Below are positions 1 to 6,549 of a DNA stretch of 64,000 bases, piece after piece (positions within the stretch are counted from its first letter, which is position 1; each line of letters starts with the position of its first letter). Origin of the DNA: a virus. Taxonomy: Duplodnaviria > Caudoviricetes. The translations under genes and the position numbers were made by a program. The DNA is taken from the IMG/VR virus record IMGVR_UViG_3300042356_001602; one strand, given 5' to 3'. A model generated the notes under the pieces. That model saw nothing but the letters and a program-made list of their open reading frames with translations, made no database searches and had not been told where the DNA came from.

Positions 1-329
1 CTTCCGATCTCAGCATACAATTCGCTAGCATACTTGCCATCAGATAATTTATTTAAAGCGTTAAAAATTGACCGATTTAAAGATTCAGATTCAAAAATAA
101 AACGGTTTGAAACTTCATAAAATGAAGTAATTACGCCAGTTCTAAGCATGAAGCCACCAGAACCGACTCCTTTGTTCTTAGCATAATCTTTGCTAGATTC
201 GATAAGAGCTTCTAGTTCTTCGTCTTTTCCAAGACTAGTATTTGAAAATACATTATGGAAAGAAGGAGCTTGAGCTTGAGCTGATGGTTCTTGAAAAAGA
301 TCATCATCGTTGTCAGAGTAATGAGACAT
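1..329 (-). CDS. hypothetical protein (partial, runs off window start)
   Basis: Manually translated open frame MSHYSDNDDDLFQEP...ELYAEIG from the ATG at 329; not in the ORF track. Confidence 0.75.
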   Translation of the reverse strand, partial: MSHYSDNDDDLFQEPSAQAQAPSFHNVFSNTSLGKDEELEALIESSKDYAKNKGVGSGGFMLRTGVITSFYEVSNRFIFESESLNRSIFNALNKLSDGKYASELYAEIG

Positions 330-373
330 TAAATATCCAAACTGTAAGTGGTCTATTTTTTTGTGTAAGATTG

Positions 374-450
374 TACGGGCGACGGGAATTGAACCCGCGT
401 GCCACCAACTACCCTTTCTACACTTTATAAGAGTGAGGGGATACGCCCGT
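374..450 (-). tRNA. non-canonical tRNA-like RNA, anticodon-like loop CU-UAU-AA (Ile/AUA)
   Basis: Perfect 7-bp acceptor ACGGGCG/CGCCCGT; T-arm GCGGG-TTCAATT-CCCGT; CACT-CTTATAA-AGTG arm; D-loop-like AGTTGGT lies 3' of the anticodon arm; no encoded CCA. Confidence 0.7.
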
Positions 451-494
451 GTACGAAAACGGAGATGTATCCAAACATATTCGAAAATCTAATT

Positions 495-764
495 TCATTG
501 TGCAGTCTGTTTCTGGGGTTGTTCTTTTACAATTTGGTGCAAAGCTTGTATGCCAAGCTTGGTTATAGTATAACCTTTATCTGACTTTATAGCAAGCTGC
601 TGTCGAACAAGAACATCAAGTGAGCGCATAACAGAACTTAATCTTTTATTATACTTTGTAGGAGATAAAGCCATAAGATCATTTTCGGTAGACCATTTAT
701 GGCCCCTGATTTTAAGATAACACAATGCTACATGAGTAGGTGAATTACGCTTAATGTTAATCAT
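495..764 (-). CDS. winged-helix DNA-binding protein (putative)
   Basis: Start moved to ATG 764 behind GGAGA; helix-helix-helix then beta-hairpin pattern (LAIKSDKGYTITKLG). Confidence 0.55.
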   Translation of the reverse strand: MINIKRNSPTHVALCYLKIRGHKWSTENDLMALSPTKYNKRLSSVMRSLDVLVRQQLAIKSDKGYTITKLGIQALHQIVKEQPQKQTAQ

Positions 765-896
765 TATTTCTCCAATATAATATAAAATAAATTGACAGCA
801 GGCAATGGGGCGATATGGGGCCACTAGTGTCATTACTTTTGGTTAGCAATTCAGTCGGCTTATTTCTGTGTTTTACCACGTAGTAAGTTTGAATTT

Positions 897-1039
897 ACTA
901 GCTGCTATCAAAGCTAGTGATGGCGAACGCTCACGTCCATAAACGTTCACCATCAAATTAATTAACCAGTAGTTACAACGGAAGATATGGGTCCACCCTA
1001 AAATATTGTAATTACGTATCCACTACAGGGCTACTAGTT
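897..1039 (-). ncRNA. candidate structured intergenic RNA
   Basis: Three adjacent stems: 1031-1039/964-972 (9 bp), 944-954/919-929 (11 bp), 912-918/897-903 (7 bp). Confidence 0.3.
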
Positions 1040-1044
1040 AAATC

Positions 1045-1515
1045 TTAGTGGATATTAAATCCACCGCAGTTTTCAAGAAAGACTTGAAATTCTTTCATAA
1101 GATCTAAACTCATATGGTACCAAGCTATATGAGATGAAACTTTTAAAGTTCCATTGCAAGCATTGCACACTTTGGTGAGAATGGTTCCATCTTCTTGATT
1201 CCAGTCACGGTTGCCCGTTCCTTCACAATGTTTGCAGTCTTCCAATGGAATAGCTGCAATAGATGCATAAAAGTCAGTGATATACTGTTCTATGATTCCT
1301 TTTTCTAAGTCTTTTTTTAAAAGCTTAGATAAGGTTAACGAGTCTCTAGCATTTAATCCATCGCCAGAGTTATCATGTGGAGATTCGCATTTGCCACAGA
1401 TAGTAGGGTGAAGGTCATCAAGACATGCCCATAAAGGATGCCAGTACCAAACATTGGCACGAAAATATTCGCCCTGTTCGTTCTTTGGCTTTCTGCCATA
1501 AACGTCCATTCCCAT
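1045..1515 (-). CDS. hypothetical phage protein with DnaJ-type Zn-finger repeats
   Basis: CKHCEGTG and CNACNGT motifs. Confidence 0.7.
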   Translation of the reverse strand: MGMDVYGRKPKNEQGEYFRANVWYWHPLWACLDDLHPTICGKCESPHDNSGDGLNARDSLTLSKLLKKDLEKGIIEQYITDFYASIAAIPLEDCKHCEGTGNRDWNQEDGTILTKVCNACNGTLKVSSHIAWYHMSLDLMKEFQVFLENCGGFNIH

Positions 1516-1517
1516 GT

Positions 1518-1781
1518 TTAGTCTCCTATTAGCTTAGTGTACACTTCACCATTCTCTTGTATTTTTGTATCTTCATACGGTGCTGCAATACGACGGTAAA
1601 GTTCTAATTTTGCACACTCTAAAGCTCCAATAACTTCGTTAATGGTAGAATATGATTTACCCTTCTTATCAATAAAGTGATTAATAAGGGTAGAGATGTA
1701 ATAATTTAATTCGCCGGCATTGACTATAGCTTCAGGGCTAAGCAATATCTCGGCTCTTAATTCAGGTTTAATGTAAGGCAT
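1518..1781 (-). CDS. conserved phage hypothetical protein (DUF6899-like)
   Basis: MPYIK...GELNY...GALECAKLELYRR..PYED.KI..NG motif; start moved to MPYIK. Confidence 0.65.
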   Translation of the reverse strand: MPYIKPELRAEILLSPEAIVNAGELNYYISTLINHFIDKKGKSYSTINEVIGALECAKLELYRRIAAPYEDTKIQENGEVYTKLIGD

Positions 1782-1783
1782 AA

Positions 1784-2044
1784 TTAATAATCCTTTTCTT
1801 GTTCGCCAAAGACTTGATTCCAACATGCTGGGTGAGTTCCAGAAATCATCCATTCTCTAGTCTCTTTATCAAGCTGTGGAAATACGTCTTGAACATAAAG
1901 CCCACGAACTTTCCATTTGTTATATTGTTCTTTAGTCATTAAAAAGAATGTTTCACCTTCACAATGAATGCATACTGTATGAACATTTTCAGGACAATAA
2001 GAGTTTTCATCTTCTGCAACACGATAATAAATAACGTTAGTCAT
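1784..2044 (-). CDS. hypothetical protein, putative Zn-binding
   Basis: MTNVIYYR start overlaps the upstream stop; CxxC plus ISGTHPACW. Confidence 0.65.
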   Translation of the reverse strand: MTNVIYYRVAEDENSYCPENVHTVCIHCEGETFFLMTKEQYNKWKVRGLYVQDVFPQLDKETREWMISGTHPACWNQVFGEQEKDY

Positions 2045-2198
2045 AGGTTTCCTGTTCAGGGTAATACCAATTGTTGGTAGAAGTAGGAGCAATTTTAGAA
2101 GCAACATAAAAAATAAATATTGCAAAGAATTGCATGAAAAGAGATTCAGTTAATACTATATAGAATAACCAAATATACATAAAAATAGTTTTAAACAT
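2037..2198 (-). CDS. small membrane protein (53 aa)
   Basis: Manual translation MFKTIFMYIWLFYIVL...EQETYD; the ATG coincides with position 76 of the upstream tRNA. Confidence 0.6.
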   Translation of the reverse strand: MFKTIFMYIWLFYIVLTESLFMQFFAIFIFYVASKIAPTSTNNWYYPEQETYD

Positions 2199-2200
2199 AG

Positions 2201-2274
2201 TGGGCCCTCTGGGGCTCGAACCCAGGACACACGGATTATGAGTCCGATGCTCTAACCGACTGAGCTAAAGGCCC
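2201..2274 (-). tRNA. tRNA anticodon CAT (Ile2 or elongator Met)
   Basis: Full cloverleaf GGGCCTT...CTCATAA...TTCGAGC...AGGGCCC-A; no encoded CCA. Confidence 0.92.
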
Positions 2275-2435
2275 GTAAGACAGTTGTGAATGCTTAAATG
2301 GAAGGATAAGCATATTGGTATCACTTTGTGGACGGGCCAGTTGTAAACAAGTGGTGATCCGTAGCAATGGGGACTGTAAGCTCCCATAGATTAAAATGAT
2401 TGCATGTCACTGCATAACATTAATCAAATAAAATA

Positions 2436-2636
2436 TTAAAGCTTTCCAGCTCCTGGAATATACATATTGATCTTAGCGGATTCAAACATAACTGAAGGTT
2501 GATCATCTCTATCGTATTCAGCGCCAATTGACAATAGCTCAGTTAGCTCTTCTTTTAGTAGAGTAACTGCTAGGATGTCATCTTGAAATTCGCCAGGAAT
2601 ATCGGCATGGATTTCAACAATTAATTTAACTTTCAT
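2436..2636 (-). CDS. hypothetical protein
   Basis: ORF track; co-oriented and tightly packed. Confidence 0.6.
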   Translation of the reverse strand: MKVKLIVEIHADIPGEFQDDILAVTLLKEELTELLSIGAEYDRDDQPSVMFESAKINMYIPGAGKL

Positions 2637-2790
2637 GAGTTGGTGTAGCCTCTTCTGTAAGTAGTAAGTATAGACGAATGTCTAATAGCAGGTCTGTCAT
2701 TTCAGATGACGAGACAAGCTGTTGACCAGAAATGTCTCCAATAGCTTTATCAACCATTTGGATAGCATTGTTTTTTGGATTAATAGTCAT
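2626..2790 (-). CDS. hypothetical protein (54 aa)
   Basis: Manual translation MTINPKNNAIQMVDKAIG...; overlaps both neighbours. Confidence 0.6.
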   Translation of the reverse strand: MTINPKNNAIQMVDKAIGDISGQQLVSSSEMTDLLLDIRLYLLLTEEATPTHES

Positions 2791-3068
2791 TACGCTTCCC
2801 CTCCACGTTTTTTATATATAGTAACTGCTTTTTCTAAGGTGGTGCAGTAATCACCATTCGATGCTTCAAAGCCTTGAGGTATAGCCACAACGCTCCATAC
2901 TACGTATGGATGAAGCTCGTTCTCTTTATGACAAATAGTTATCCAATGAGCATAACTATCGTCAGGAATCCTATCAGCTTTTTTAGTAGCTGTTATAACC
3001 GTCCTATTGGTGGTGCCTACAACATCGCCAATATGAAGTTCGTTTAGTAAATTTAATTCATTTGTCAT
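2790..3068 (-). CDS. hypothetical protein
   Basis: Start moved to ATG 3068, directly after tRNA-Lys; the track start lies inside the tRNA. Confidence 0.7.
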   Translation of the reverse strand: MTNELNLLNELHIGDVVGTTNRTVITATKKADRIPDDSYAHWITICHKENELHPYVVWSVVAIPQGFEASNGDYCTTLEKAVTIYKKRGGEA

Positions 3069-3070
3069 AG

Positions 3071-3143
3071 TACGCCCTCCGGGGCTCGAACCCGGGACAC
3101 ACGGATTAAAAGTCCGATGCTCTACCAACTGAGCTAAAGGCGC
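3071..3143 (-). tRNA. tRNA-Lys(TTT)
   Basis: Full cloverleaf GCGCCTT...CTTTTAA...AGGGCGT-A. Confidence 0.93.
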
Positions 3144-3153
3144 GTGATGTCAT

Positions 3154-3366
3154 CTATGGATAGATGTCATCAATGGTAGTGGGTTCAACTATGTCTAGTG
3201 TTTGTAAAACTTGTTTAAGCTTTTTACTTTTTTTAATTTTATAACCAGCTGCATTAAGATCTTGAATAATTTTTTCTGGAATACCATGCCAGATTACAAT
3301 ACCAGAAGCAGTTAAAGAATGAGCAATAATATCAAGCTTATGTTTTTTGTGAAGTTTAAATATCAT
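3154..3366 (-). CDS. hypothetical protein
   Basis: ORF track. Confidence 0.6.
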   Translation of the reverse strand: MIFKLHKKHKLDIIAHSLTASGIVIWHGIPEKIIQDLNAAGYKIKKSKKLKQVLQTLDIVEPTTIDDIYP

Positions 3367-3400
3367 TAATTAATCCTTATGTCTATATGTATAATAACAA

Positions 3401-3601
3401 TTATACAACGCGAACGTTGATTGCTTCAGGACCTTTACGTCCTTCGCCAATATCGAATTGAACACTTTGACCTGTAGTCAATGCAGGCTGGGCAGCTTGT
3501 TCAACATTAGAAGTATGAACAAAGATGTCTCCATCTGTGTCTGTAGAAATAAAGCCAAAGCCTTTTTCTTCATTGAAAAATTTTACAATACCTGTAGGCA
3601 T
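3401..3601 (-). CDS. cspA: cold-shock domain protein
   Basis: GIVKFFNEEKGFGFI (RNP1) and DIFVHTS (RNP2). Confidence 0.95.
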   Translation of the reverse strand: MPTGIVKFFNEEKGFGFISTDTDGDIFVHTSNVEQAAQPALTTGQSVQFDIGEGRKGPEAINVRVV

Positions 3602-3851
3602 TAGTACTCGTTTCTATTATATTTTTTGTTTAATGGATTCCATAATAAATTATGGTTTCCATAGTTTTTCTACTATAAAAGTTAAAACACCTGCAATAAC
3701 TAATATGATTAGTATATCTTTCATTCGTAATAACCTTGATTTCTAGTAGAGATTCCATAAGGAGTTTGATGGATTTTGTTATAGGATTTATAACGTTGTC
3801 TAGCTGTACGCTTAAACCTAATCCTATTAATTAAATGTTGAATAGAGTAAA

Positions 3852-4139
3852 TCATATTCCATCCTTATTGATAATTCTTTTAGGTTTTCTTTTGGCATTG
3901 CCATAAGGAAAATAACCTAGTTTTACACGTTGTTCTTCTGTTTCGCCACCCCATATGCCGTACTCAAGGTTGTCACGAGCATAAGCTCTGCACTGAGTGG
4001 CTACTGGGCATTGAGAACAAATGGTCAAAGCTTTTGCTTCTCGTTTAACTCTAGCTTGAGGGCGTTCGTTATAAAGCGGAAAGAATAAATCAGTTTGATT
4101 TTTACATGCCGCTGCATCGAACCATGAAGGGTGATACAT
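3852..4139 (-). CDS. whiB: WhiB-family transcription factor
   Basis: Four Cys (C..LFFP...CSQCPVATQC) and GIWGGETEEQR. Confidence 0.93.
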   Translation of the reverse strand: MYHPSWFDAAACKNQTDLFFPLYNERPQARVKREAKALTICSQCPVATQCRAYARDNLEYGIWGGETEEQRVKLGYFPYGNAKRKPKRIINKDGI

Positions 4140-4182
4140 TTAAATCCTTAAAAGGTACTAATTTGATATAAAGGTCACTTAA

Positions 4183-4473
4183 TTAAAGAGGCCAGTGTTT
4201 TGAATCTGCCTTAGGATCTAATGCAGGTATTATATTGCATGATAGATTATGCTTTTCTTGAGTTGAATCAACCCAAGCTTTTGCTTGTTCTAAGGTAGCG
4301 AATGGACCCCATGATACAACATGGGTGTATCCATGATACTGGGCAAAGTAAGTATACTTAGGTAGATCATCTTGTTGCAAAACAGAATTATACCATTCCA
4401 TTTTTGACATATTAACATCTATATCTTCTAGAATAGATATAGTTTTAAGTGCGTTTCTAATTTTTTTAAACAT
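4183..4473 (-). CDS. hypothetical protein
   Basis: ORF track. Confidence 0.65.
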   Translation of the reverse strand: MFKKIRNALKTISILEDIDVNMSKMEWYNSVLQQDDLPKYTYFAQYHGYTHVVSWGPFATLEQAKAWVDSTQEKHNLSCNIIPALDPKADSKHWPL

Positions 4474-4476
4474 GGG

Positions 4477-4761
4477 TTAATCCTGACCAAAGTTAACGTG
4501 TACAACATTGTTTACGTCATTAGTTTTAGGGGTGTACAAGAGTACTTTAGCCAAAGCTTGAGAATAACCCTTAAATGCTGGATGATCATCTGGAATTTCA
4601 TCTCCGTACTCTGCACGATGAATGTAAAGAACACGTCCATCTTCAAAGTGGAAATCTAAACGATATCCAGAATCAGAAGTAAAAGCTTCCAAAGCATCTT
4701 CGATATTTAAATGATCAGCAGTTAAGCCATCATTTGAACGAGTTGAGTAAGTAATAAACAT
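4477..4761 (-). CDS. hypothetical protein
   Basis: Start moved to ATG 4761 (TAATG coupling with the upstream gene). Confidence 0.65.
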   Translation of the reverse strand: MFITYSTRSNDGLTADHLNIEDALEAFTSDSGYRLDFHFEDGRVLYIHRAEYGDEIPDDHPAFKGYSQALAKVLLYTPKTNDVNNVVHVNFGQD

Positions 4762-4964
4762 TATAGATACTTCCATTTATCAATTGCAGGGATGAGGCCT
4801 AAAATAGAACCATCATCCCATTTTGCAAATACAGTTCCGTTAGAATCTACCGCAGTTACTGTTCCCTGAGAGCCAGGGACAAGATTAGTGTATCTGTCGG
4901 TGCAAGTAATTATTTCTATACGTCTACCTAATAGGTGAGACATGTCATATTTGGATTTTGTCAT
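4761..4964 (-). CDS. DUF4314-like SH3-barrel protein
   Basis: G.RIE.....D.Y..LVPG..GTV..VD..GT.FAKWDDGS.LGLIP..D; start at ATG 4964 directly after tRNA-Asn. Confidence 0.75.
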   Translation of the reverse strand: MTKSKYDMSHLLGRRIEIITCTDRYTNLVPGSQGTVTAVDSNGTVFAKWDDGSILGLIPAIDKWKYL

Positions 4965-4966
4965 AG

Positions 4967-5039
4967 CTCCCAGAGTAGGGCTCGAACCTACGACCAACGG
5001 ATTAACAGTCCGTAGCTCTGCCAACTGAGCTATCTGGGA
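4967..5039 (-). tRNA. tRNA-Asn(GTT)
   Basis: Full cloverleaf TCCCAGA...CTGTTAA...TCTGGGA-G. Confidence 0.93.
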
Positions 5040-5044
5040 TTAGA

Positions 5045-5305
5045 TTAAATTATTACTTCAAGTGAAGAATCGTAATTTTGCAACTGAGGGTTATCAAGAA
5101 GTTGAATAGCAAATAACGGAGTAACGTCGTGACTATCAAAATCTGTTTCAGTGTTAGCAAATGACAAAGTCAAATTAGCTTCATGAAGAGATAATAAAAG
5201 CTCTCTAAGGTCAAGGCCTATAGGTCTAAGATTATCAATTAAGCGATGAGCTATAAGAATAAGATCTTGAGCTTCTTGACGTGTTGGTTGTATTTTTGTT
5301 TTCAT
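5045..5305 (-). CDS. hypothetical protein
   Basis: ORF track; AAGGA ribosome-binding site upstream. Confidence 0.65.
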   Translation of the reverse strand: MKTKIQPTRQEAQDLILIAHRLIDNLRPIGLDLRELLLSLHEANLTLSFANTETDFDSHDVTPLFAIQLLDNPQLQNYDSSLEVII

Positions 5306-5328
5306 GTTTTCCTTTATTGGTGGTTATT

Positions 5329-5631
5329 TTACCAACCGCAACGTGAAAATATAATTGCAGTTGATAATACATATATGAGCAAAAGTGTTTCATATCTATA
5401 GCGAGAATACACTCTTGCAGAACGTATGCCCTTGCGATAAAGAGCATCTTGTTTTCTGGCTAGATTATATTCATCTACACGATATGGATAAGTGAAGAAG
5501 TGATGATCTTCAATTGTCTTGTGATGTTTAATACCGTAATCAAATCCATCAGTAAATGGTCTGATTTTTGGAATTAAATTGTTAATAAACTTTTTCATAA
5601 GTATGTTTATTTCCTTAAAATAATTTGTCAT
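5329..5631 (-). CDS. hypothetical protein with C-terminal TM segment
   Basis: ORF track; hydrophobic C-terminus. Confidence 0.6.
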   Translation of the reverse strand: MTNYFKEINILMKKFINNLIPKIRPFTDGFDYGIKHHKTIEDHHFFTYPYRVDEYNLARKQDALYRKGIRSARVYSRYRYETLLLIYVLSTAIIFSRCGW

Positions 5632-5649
5632 GCTTATTACAGCAGACAG

Positions 5650-5733
5650 TACCCGAGACCGGACTTGAACCGGTAAGAGGTTGCCCTCCGGGGGGTTTAA
5701 GCCCCCTGCGTCTGCCTATTCCGCCACTCGGGT
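5650..5733 (-). tRNA. tRNA-Leu(TAA)
   Basis: ACCCGAG acceptor, GGCGGAATAGGCAGACGC D-arm, CTTAAAC loop, long variable arm. Confidence 0.93.
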
Positions 5734-5743
5734 GAATGGTAAA

Positions 5744-5911
5744 CTAGGTGTTTTGAGTTTTGCCAATGATGGCATCTTTAAGACAGGCTATGCATAAGAG
5801 TTTATCCATTAAAACAGATTTGTTAACATCATTAGATATTGATCCGCAAGATGAACATTTCTTTTTAAGATTAAAGTTTTGATTTAATGAGTTCTTCTGA
5901 GGGTTCTTCAT
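5744..5911 (-). CDS. small Zn-finger protein
   Basis: CSSC...CIAC; start uncertain, overlaps the upstream ORF. Confidence 0.45.
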   Translation of the reverse strand: MKNPQKNSLNQNFNLKKKCSSCGSISNDVNKSVLMDKLLCIACLKDAIIGKTQNT

Positions 5912-6158
5912 TAGATGTATACTCCTGATAGTCAATGCTTCCTTGTTCTGTCATACCAGAATTAGTAAGTATGTGATGCATGCCAGCAAAGTAACCTGAA
6001 ATGTGTTCTATTTCAGGCTTGCTGATTTTTGCGTCACCATATTCTACGAAGGTAGCATTGTCTCCAAGCATGTTTTCAACAAGCTTAATGAGTTTAATAG
6101 TTGTAGTGAGATTAGATAAATCTTCAGGAGAAGATGTTATCATCATTGCCATTGTCAT
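5871..6158 (-). CDS. hypothetical protein
   Basis: ORF track; AAAGGAAG ribosome-binding site. Confidence 0.65.
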   Translation of the reverse strand: MTMAMMITSSPEDLSNLTTTIKLIKLVENMLGDNATFVEYGDAKISKPEIEHISGYFAGMHHILTNSGMTEQGSIDYQEYTSNEEPSEELIKSKL

Positions 6159-6198
6159 AATATCTTCCTTTCTTGGGTAAGAATGTTATTGTTTTTTT

Positions 6199-6549
6199 TT
6201 ATCTATAGAATATATTTAATATAGAATCAATTATTTCTTGAGACACAGATTGTGAATCTTCGCCTACAACTAAAGCATCACCATAAATTGTAGAGTCTTG
6301 ATATATATTAGTATAAGTTCTATAAAGAACAGTTGCATCATGATTAACTTTAGGGTAAATCCCAAAGTTACTATATGATAGAATAATGAATACTTGATCA
6401 GTAATCTTTATTTTGTATGTAGGTTGATTTTGAAAAATGTAATCGATAACTTTATCGTATGCTTCCAATATAATGCAAGCACTTCCTTGATAAGGAATAT
6501 ATAAAGTTTCTATTTTGTTTTCAAGATCAAGCTCTTTTAAAAGAGTCAA
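6199..6549 (-). CDS. hypothetical protein (DUF3846-like C-terminal motif)
   Basis: N..AT.LY......D.TIYGDALVVG motif; TTG start after the S8 stop is inferred. Confidence 0.55.
   Translation of the reverse strand: MTLLKELDLENKIETLYIPYQGSACIILEAYDKVIDYIFQNQPTYKIKITDQVFIILSYSNFGIYPKVNHDATVLYRTYTNIYQDSTIYGDALVVGEDSQSVSQEIIDSILNIFYR

Follow-up and report, generated by a model that had tools for sequence, protein, structure and literature searches.

The phage gene described here, 77 nt long, appears to be a new architectural variant of tRNA and most likely a working tRNA-Ile(UAU). It lies near one end of a stretch of 64,000 nt (the window, by which we mean the whole stretch of DNA that was analysed) taken from an 86-kb contig of a tailed phage from lake water, ca. 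42% complete and carrying genes for the terminase, the portal and the major head protein. We consider it probable that the product works as an elongator tRNA whose core is not wired as in the cloverleaf; isoleucine is its most likely amino acid and AUA the codon that it would read. The evidence consists of a secondary structure with one tertiary-like pair, the conservation of individual bases, the restriction to NAU anticodons and the membership of tRNA arrays. In such a molecule U8 and A9 would be followed at once by the strand found on the 3' side of the D stem in ordinary tRNAs. An equivalent of position 26 would come next, then the anticodon arm, then a conserved linker N-GAAA, and only after these the strand of the 5' side of the D stem and the D-loop (A, R, .., GG, .., A), with the T stem joined directly to the latter. 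The parts are listed in Table 1, where RNA position p corresponds to window coordinate 451-p.

Table 1. Coordinates in the window of the rewired tRNA gene, its parts and the ordinary tRNA genes
Feature	Position	Strand	Basis
Whole gene, 77 nt, rewired tRNA	374..450	-	sequence and family model R1
Acceptor stem, 5' strand, positions 1-7	444..450	-	7/7 pairs with 375-381 compensatory (142 sequences)
U8 A9, canonical-like	442..443	-	invariant in the first scan set, outside the letters fixed by the pattern
U10 C11 C12 C13, right after A9, standing in for the D-stem 3' strand (canonical 22-25)	438..441	-	pairs 11-39, 12-38, 13-37
C14, standing in for canonical position 26	437	-	invariant; placement inferred
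Anticodon arm: U15.U31 and 4 bp (16-19 with 27-30), loop CUUAUAA	420..436	-	4/4 pairs compensatory
Anticodon UAU	427-429	-	sequence
Linker A32 G33 A34 A35 A36, from anticodon stem to relocated D-stem strand	415..419	-	scan with linker left free
G37 G38 G39 U40, standing in for the D-stem 5' strand (canonical 10-13)	411..414	-	compensates changes at 11-13
Displaced D-loop A41 G42 U U G45 G46 U47 G G C50 A51 C52	399..410	-	invariant bases and 42/52 covariation
T arm, 5-bp stem and loop UUCAAUU	382..398	-	4/5 pairs compensatory
Acceptor stem, 3' strand (375-381), and discriminator A (374)	374..381	-	sequence, compensatory pairs
tRNA-Met	2200-2274	-	ARAGORN
tRNA-Lys	3070-3143	-	ARAGORN
tRNA-Asn	4966-5039	-	ARAGORN
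tRNA-Leu(UAA)	5649-5733	-	ARAGORN

Read on the minus strand from 450 to 374, the sequence agrees letter for letter with the segmentation given in the preliminary description. The canonical parts that it had recognized are all there (a 7-bp acceptor stem, U8 A9, a 4-bp anticodon stem with a CUUAUAA loop, the T stem GCGGG/CCCGU with the loop UUCAAUU, and a discriminator A), and AGUUGGU does stand 3' of the anticodon arm, as it had claimed. Only 6 nt separate A9 from the anticodon stem, with no D hairpin among them. The central proposal, a tRNA whose D-loop is re-threaded behind the anticodon arm, had been staked on a helix enclosing that arm and on the GG of the displaced loop; both are conserved in the homologues, which supports it. 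CCA is not encoded in the window copy, where the discriminator is followed by CAA, and among the matches listed the 3' trailer is CCA in 34 of 295 members. Probably RNase P and 3' nucleases would free the RNA from a longer transcript and the host would add the CCA.

We aligned 142 distinct members of the family (alignment A2) and built a covariance model (R1) on their structure. Pairing holds in 98% of all cells. The covariation score of 0.805 compares with 0.20 for shuffled controls and at most 0.17 when the partners were slid. Compensatory changes are found at all seven pairs of the acceptor stem (97% of the cells paired), at the four pairs of the anticodon stem and at four of the five in the T stem (142 sequences). 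The helix around the anticodon arm is formed by C11-G39, C12-G38 and C13-G37 (window 440-438 with 412-414), with U10 opposite U40. In the same 142 sequences it is paired in 100% of the cells, with compensatory changes at each of its three pairs: 11-39 is CG in 130, AU in 8, UA in 3 and UG in 1; 12-38 is CG in 62, UA in 60, GC in 14, AU in 3 and UG in 3; and 13-37 is CG in 127, GC in 12, AU in 2 and UA in 1. The scans that supplied the variants accepted only sequences altered at position 12 or 13 and placed no constraint on bases 37-39, so that the compensation was not selected for. RNAalifold, run unguided, gave the same structure with the same enclosing pairs. The covariance model from homologues, which the preliminary description had suggested as a check, thus supports the fold and gives the window copy 95.9 bits (E 3e-25), within the range of the family members (84-96 bits), versus 28 bits at most for canonical tRNAs.

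As to the enclosing helix itself, originally drawn as CCCT/AGGG, the enclosure of the anticodon arm stands and the register has to be shifted by one base. The original register (12-15 with 36-39) leaves 80.6% of the cells paired, and its pair 13-38 is broken in 70 of the 142 sequences. The register of the single-sequence minimum free energy fold (8-12 with 37-41 and 14-15 with 32-33) is also broken by changes in the homologues, and both were rejected because changes at 11, 12, 13, 32, 38 and 39 disrupt them. Nearest-neighbour energies are -25.3 kcal/mol for this other register versus -22.3 kcal/mol for the supported fold, and the stability of the lone sequence is unremarkable (z -1.44). The case therefore rests on the comparison with relatives.

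The first scan pattern had TAGAAAGG and GGGTTCAA as its sole fixed letters. In the set that it returned U8, A9, U40, A41, G45, G46, U47, C50 and A51 are invariant without having been fixed by the pattern, and so are C32, U33, A35, U36 and A37 of the anticodon loop (canonical numbers). C14 is invariant across the members and the discriminator is A in 142 of 142 aligned ones. When the linker was left free in the search (183 sequences), G33 A34 A35 A36 proved almost invariant, and position 32 was A in 151, U in 21, C in 8 and G in 1. Many conserved columns, including some of the T-loop letters, were fixed by the search patterns, so that invariance across the family is overstated outside the columns named here. 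Two mismatches recur, a U.U at acceptor pair 6-67 (20 of 142) and another at the second T-stem pair (14 of 142), in columns 6/72 and 55/69 of alignment A2, and each of them is borne by whole subgroups.

How the layout is to be read follows from the order of its words. Canonical tRNAs have the word A14 R15 .. G18 G19 .. A21 after the 5' strand of the D stem, and R15 has Y48 as its partner. The rewired RNA has this word, as A41 R42 .. G45 G46 U47 .. A51 Y52, after G37 G38 G39 U40, and the bases of the word are likely the equivalents of A14, R15, G18 G19, A21 and Y48. The purine after the relocated stem (R42) and the pyrimidine before the T stem (Y52) covary, being A-U in 109 sequences, G-C in 27 and something else in 6, and behave like the Levitt pair 15-48; a mutual-information search for more tertiary pairs found none besides 42-52. 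At the other end U10 C11 C12 C13, then C14 and then the anticodon stem reproduce the order of the normal positions 22-25 and 26. Because of this order of strand words and the Levitt-like pair, we read the segments, in canonical numbers, as 1-9 / 22-47 / 10-21 / 48-76. From the anticodon loop to the elbow there would be ten stacked layers, as in the cloverleaf: five of the anticodon stem (four pairs and U15.U31), one of C14/N32, which would resemble 26/44, and four of the D stem (three pairs and U10.U40). Only three backbone joins would differ, namely 9 to 22, 47 to 10 through the GAAA bulge, and 21 to 48. The equivalents of the usual core and elbow bases (U8-A14, R15-Y48, and G18 G19 with the T loop) are present and conserved. 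With all these partners kept and ten layers available, an L shape of normal size would be expected, judging from the sequence and textbook tRNA geometry.

Many large phages carry RNA ligases, and the gene might be imagined to encode a scrambled precursor from which cutting and ligation restore the usual cloverleaf. There is a precedent for this in the permuted and split tRNA genes of Cyanidioschyzon merolae, a red alga, and of archaea (PMC3978253), in which the order of the gene segments likewise differs from the canonical one. However, those genes are permuted at the acceptor ends and their products are processed back to a normal cloverleaf, whereas in the rewired family the acceptor strands stand at both ends of the 77-nt unit and the change is internal and apparently permanent. 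Two cuts and two internal ligations would be required of an RNA that has no bulge-helix-bulge or other splice motif and whose acceptor ends are already terminal. Since the covarying helix exists only in the collinear order, we regard a cut-and-rejoined precursor as extremely improbable.

A tRNA that keeps its wiring as transcribed shares a great deal with canonical tRNA-Ile (RF00005; with GAU, lysidine-modified Ile2 CAU or the rarer UAU). Common to both are the 7-bp acceptor stem, U8 A9, A73, the 7-nt anticodon loop C-U-NAU-A-M, the 5-bp T stem with its UUCRA loop and the signature bases A14, R15, G18 G19, A21 and Y48, and with canonical phage tRNA-Ile also the overall length of 77 nt and the position in phage tRNA arrays. 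The canonical molecule has a D hairpin 5' of the anticodon arm, which the rewired family lacks; instead, the D-stem strands flank the anticodon arm, the D-loop is followed at once by the T stem, and where the variable loop would normally exit there is a conserved N-GAAA linker. The D-armless mitochondrial tRNAs (metazoan mt-tRNA-Ser(AGY) and nematode mt-tRNAs; PMC7609411) likewise serve as tRNAs although their acceptor and anticodon stems have no D hairpin between them. However, in them the D-arm is truly lost, the contacts of GG with the T loop at the elbow are lost or weakened, and the molecules are shorter and depend on adapted partner proteins, whereas the rewired family keeps the D stem and the GG, although moved, at normal length and in bacterial translation. 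The allo-tRNAs and other 8/4 or 9/3 tRNAs (PMC5389517) are similarly natural and non-standard, mined from metagenomes, in some cases from phages, and have UAU among their anticodons; they differ in that their acceptor/T-stem split is altered with the D-arm in place, while the rewired family keeps the 7/5 split and rewires the D-arm.

We have found no description of this layout in open-access papers and preprints, although it may have been published elsewhere, and it is absent from a review of non-canonical tRNAs (PMC7609411). A paper of 2024 speaks of the cloverleaf as adopted by all known bacterial tRNAs (PMC11551756). If our reading is true, the family would be a natural, full-size counter-example to a cloverleaf that is treated as universal among the tRNAs of bacterial ribosomes, with the core contacts kept and the chain threaded differently. 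It would reveal what architecture is really needed by the synthetase, EF-Tu, RNase P, the CCA enzyme and the ribosome, and would offer a natural scaffold for the design of orthogonal tRNAs.

In the window ARAGORN called four ordinary tRNAs, all on the minus strand, and not the rewired gene. In a set of 224 relatives its calls overlapped with just two, both by wrong models. The expectation that standard scanners would miss the gene thus held for ARAGORN and failed for the Rfam tRNA model (RF00005), which passes marginally (32.2 bits versus a threshold of 29) by deleting 15 D-arm positions of the model, with 4 nt in their stead, and inserting 18 nt before the T stem. A tmRNA was also considered and rejected, as the RF00023 score is 17.5 bits versus a threshold of 47 and the match is confined to the tRNA-like ends. 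Among the ordinary genes, tRNA-Leu(UAA) was missing from the Rfam search of the whole 64 kb at the gathering threshold and scored 50.8 bits when 8 kb were searched, which is an effect of the speed filter.

The family comprises at least 295 copies, at least 208 of them distinct, in at least 286 phage, MAG and GenBank loci. They come from four pattern scans of IMG/VR and other searches, and the family is larger than the set gathered. Members occur in phages of Actinomycetota and of Bacteroidota, and also in samples of lake, marine, soil and gut origin. A blastn search of GenBank phages retrieved the entire element from Streptomyces phages of the BE cluster and from bajarodcaudo virus 1, and later searches added two crAss-like phages, the cultured Kehishuvirus tikkala and cr130_1; a megablast of window positions 1-3000 against the same phages gave no match. 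Carriers in culture include phages of the Streptomyces BE cluster and a crAss-like phage whose host is Bacteroides cellulosilyticus. When one genome per species was scanned for 185,579 prokaryote species, there were 22 matches; each lies on a MAG contig, and Bacteroidota account for many. One member sits between tRNA-Ile(GAU) and tRNA-Lys in an array of 24 tRNAs, on a 712-kb contig of an Actinomycetota MAG (L264:3245-3330), which is either a mobile tRNA array, a prophage in the chromosome or a binning artefact. In other words, the family belongs to phages and mobile-looking tRNA arrays and not to ordinary bacterial tRNA sets.

Nearly all GenBank records lack an annotation of the gene. In Streptomyces phage EGole the member (L002:1499-1575) is labelled tRNA-Leu (codon UUA), a label incompatible with its anticodon loop, which reads GAU; the other BE-cluster records listed are blank at the matched site. 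Since ARAGORN makes no call and most records are blank or mislabelled, phage tRNA inventories and studies of codon usage are predicted to miss a common AUA decoder. The EGole member begins 13 nt after a nucleotidyltransferase gene. Ca. 260 further matches in mycobacteriophages, and those in Propionibacterium phages, cover only 25 nt of the T-arm/acceptor end and are not members of the family. Matches of this type are seen at attachment sites and, together with the missing ARAGORN call and the marginal Rfam score, could be taken to mean that the gene is a decayed tRNA gene, an attachment-site tRNA fragment or a chance likeness. With at least 208 distinct sequences, compensatory changes in every helix and invariant loop residues, such an origin is refuted by the covariation data and has practically no chance of being correct.

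The anticodons among the at least 295 members listed are UAU (224), GAU (46) and CAU (25), with no other. An architecture search blind to the anticodon, over all the loci gathered, returned 228 NAU members and a single one with ACG. This copy (L286:7912-7987, minus strand) has the rewired layout with an arginine anticodon, a GAGAA linker and a CAC/GTG enclosing helix, and the layout is therefore not strictly confined to the AUN box. The window copy combines UAU, A37, A38 and A73, the AUN-box features of bacterial IleRS substrates. The main determinants for IleRS are the anticodon and A73, and the body of the E. coli tRNA-Ile is reported to contribute C4-G69, U12-A23 and C29-G41. The window copy is without these E. 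coli-type pairs (4-69 is G-C, and the equivalents of 12-23 and 29-41 are G-C and A-U), but their absence weighs little because determinants differ between species. IleRS would accordingly be expected to charge the RNA, which would then decode AUA; an unmodified U34 could misread AUG.

Rewired genes keep the company of ordinary ones. Of 261 members among the matches listed, 257 have their nearest tRNA on the same strand, the median distance to it being 67 nt. In the same matches a rewired UAU gene accompanies a canonical GAU in 24 loci and a canonical UAU in 2, and a rewired GAU accompanies a canonical UAU in 9 and a canonical GAU in 4 (Fisher test of rewired versus ordinary tRNA-Ile anticodon, p 1.4e-4, relatedness ignored). 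Where a locus has two rewired copies they are GAU and UAU in 7 cases and both GAU in 2, again among the matches listed. The rewired tRNA and the ordinary tRNA-Ile of one phage tend to differ in anticodon, the one complementing the other. A clear case is Kehishuvirus tikkala (host Bacteroides cellulosilyticus), in which ARAGORN finds an array of 23 tRNA genes and the member (L319:2496-2572) occupies an unannotated gap between tRNA-Trp and tRNA-Met; the rewired gene has GAU and the ordinary tRNA-Ile of the array UAU. The CAU subclass, found at 25 loci among the matches listed (e.g., L179:3492-3568 on the minus strand and L160:4321-4397 on the plus strand), has acceptor stems that mostly begin GGGC or GGAC and, in these matches, never occurs together with a UAU copy. 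It could represent a lysidine-dependent tRNA-Ile2 or a tRNA-Met.

This subclass bears on the idea that the gene encodes a working tRNA of another identity, in which the body would redirect charging, e.g., to methionine, and AUA or AUY would be recoded in phage proteins. The lack of the E. coli identity pairs outside the anticodon loop would agree with this, as would a CAU subclass that may be Met rather than Ile2, and crAss-like phages are known to recode stop codons by means of their tRNAs. However, both of the main IleRS determinants are retained, and the rewired GAU and UAU genes share arrays with canonical tRNA-Ile genes of the other anticodon just as ordinary isoacceptors do, so that we hold a different identity to be very unlikely. 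In the crAss-like phage cr130_1 ARAGORN assigns the anticodon CUA (amber suppressor) to a tRNA at L320:3063-3136 that the record gives as tRNA-Gln, which fits the stop-codon recoding of these phages.

The same arrays are pertinent to a role outside translation, as a tRNA mimic or decoy. Its target would be a component of the host that it absorbs or misleads, e.g., an anticodon nuclease or some other defence directed at tRNAs, or else a protein that modifies or senses them. EF-Tu, the ribosome or modification enzymes could have difficulty with a non-standard core, and phage tRNAs have been linked to the escape from tRNA-targeting defences (PMC10264068, PMC11555353). A decoy, however, would need neither a freely varying 7-bp acceptor stem with a discriminator A, nor two or three anticodons of one codon box, nor an anticodon that complements the canonical tRNA-Ile isoacceptor of the phage. 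No known defence that targets tRNA-Ile was identified, and the data gathered lend no support to the decoy for host anticodon nucleases that the preliminary description had put forward. We therefore consider a decoy unlikely.

Returning to a tRNA that serves translation, and going beyond the single gene, we lean towards a natural and widespread non-cloverleaf tRNA that works on bacterial ribosomes in phages of several phyla, for isoleucine and in at least one arginine-like case. In it the D hairpin would have been opened at its loop and closed at the other end, with the L built along another path of the chain, and the rewiring would perhaps be adaptive. It could make the junction of the D and anticodon stems stiffer and thereby let U34 read AUA while rejecting AUG, or it could conceal the tRNA from nucleases or enzymes of the host that recognise a normal D-arm.

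The codon usage of the carrier phage agrees with a need for a tRNA that reads AUA. Its GC content is 38.6%, and AUA makes up 344 of 1144 Ile codons (30%), or 20.7 per thousand codons. The other tRNAs of the contig read AGA, UUA, AAA, AAY and AUG, and there is no ordinary tRNA-Ile on it; in what is a typical tRNA set for codons ending in A or U, the rewired gene would therefore fill the AUA slot. Decoding of AUA is in this sense well supported by the context. AUA had been described as common in the late genes, which is true for much of the structural block (40-50% of the Ile codons in the genes beside the major head gene) and untrue for the major head gene itself (58308-59375, plus strand), where none of the 23 Ile codons is AUA. 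The most highly expressed gene thus seems to avoid the codon that the rewired tRNA would read.

Contigs from RNA libraries of two studies cover window positions 318-503 and 366-536 and are centred on the gene, a weak hint of expression or of a stable RNA, and could derive from contaminating DNA. The metatranscriptomes were available as contigs, a format in which RNA ends, strand and CCA are invisible and the uncovered flanking ORFs are uninformative. A scan of window positions 1-6500 for promoters and terminators gave fewer sites than shuffled sequence and is uninformative on the transcription unit, and the ORFs on either side of the gene (495-833 and 3-329) had no match in Pfam. Further along, between ORFs 1045-1515 and 495-833, there is an ORF-free gap of ca. 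210 nt (834-1044, minus strand); a metatranscriptome contig extends over 785-916, and the gap could correspond to a leader or to a second small RNA.
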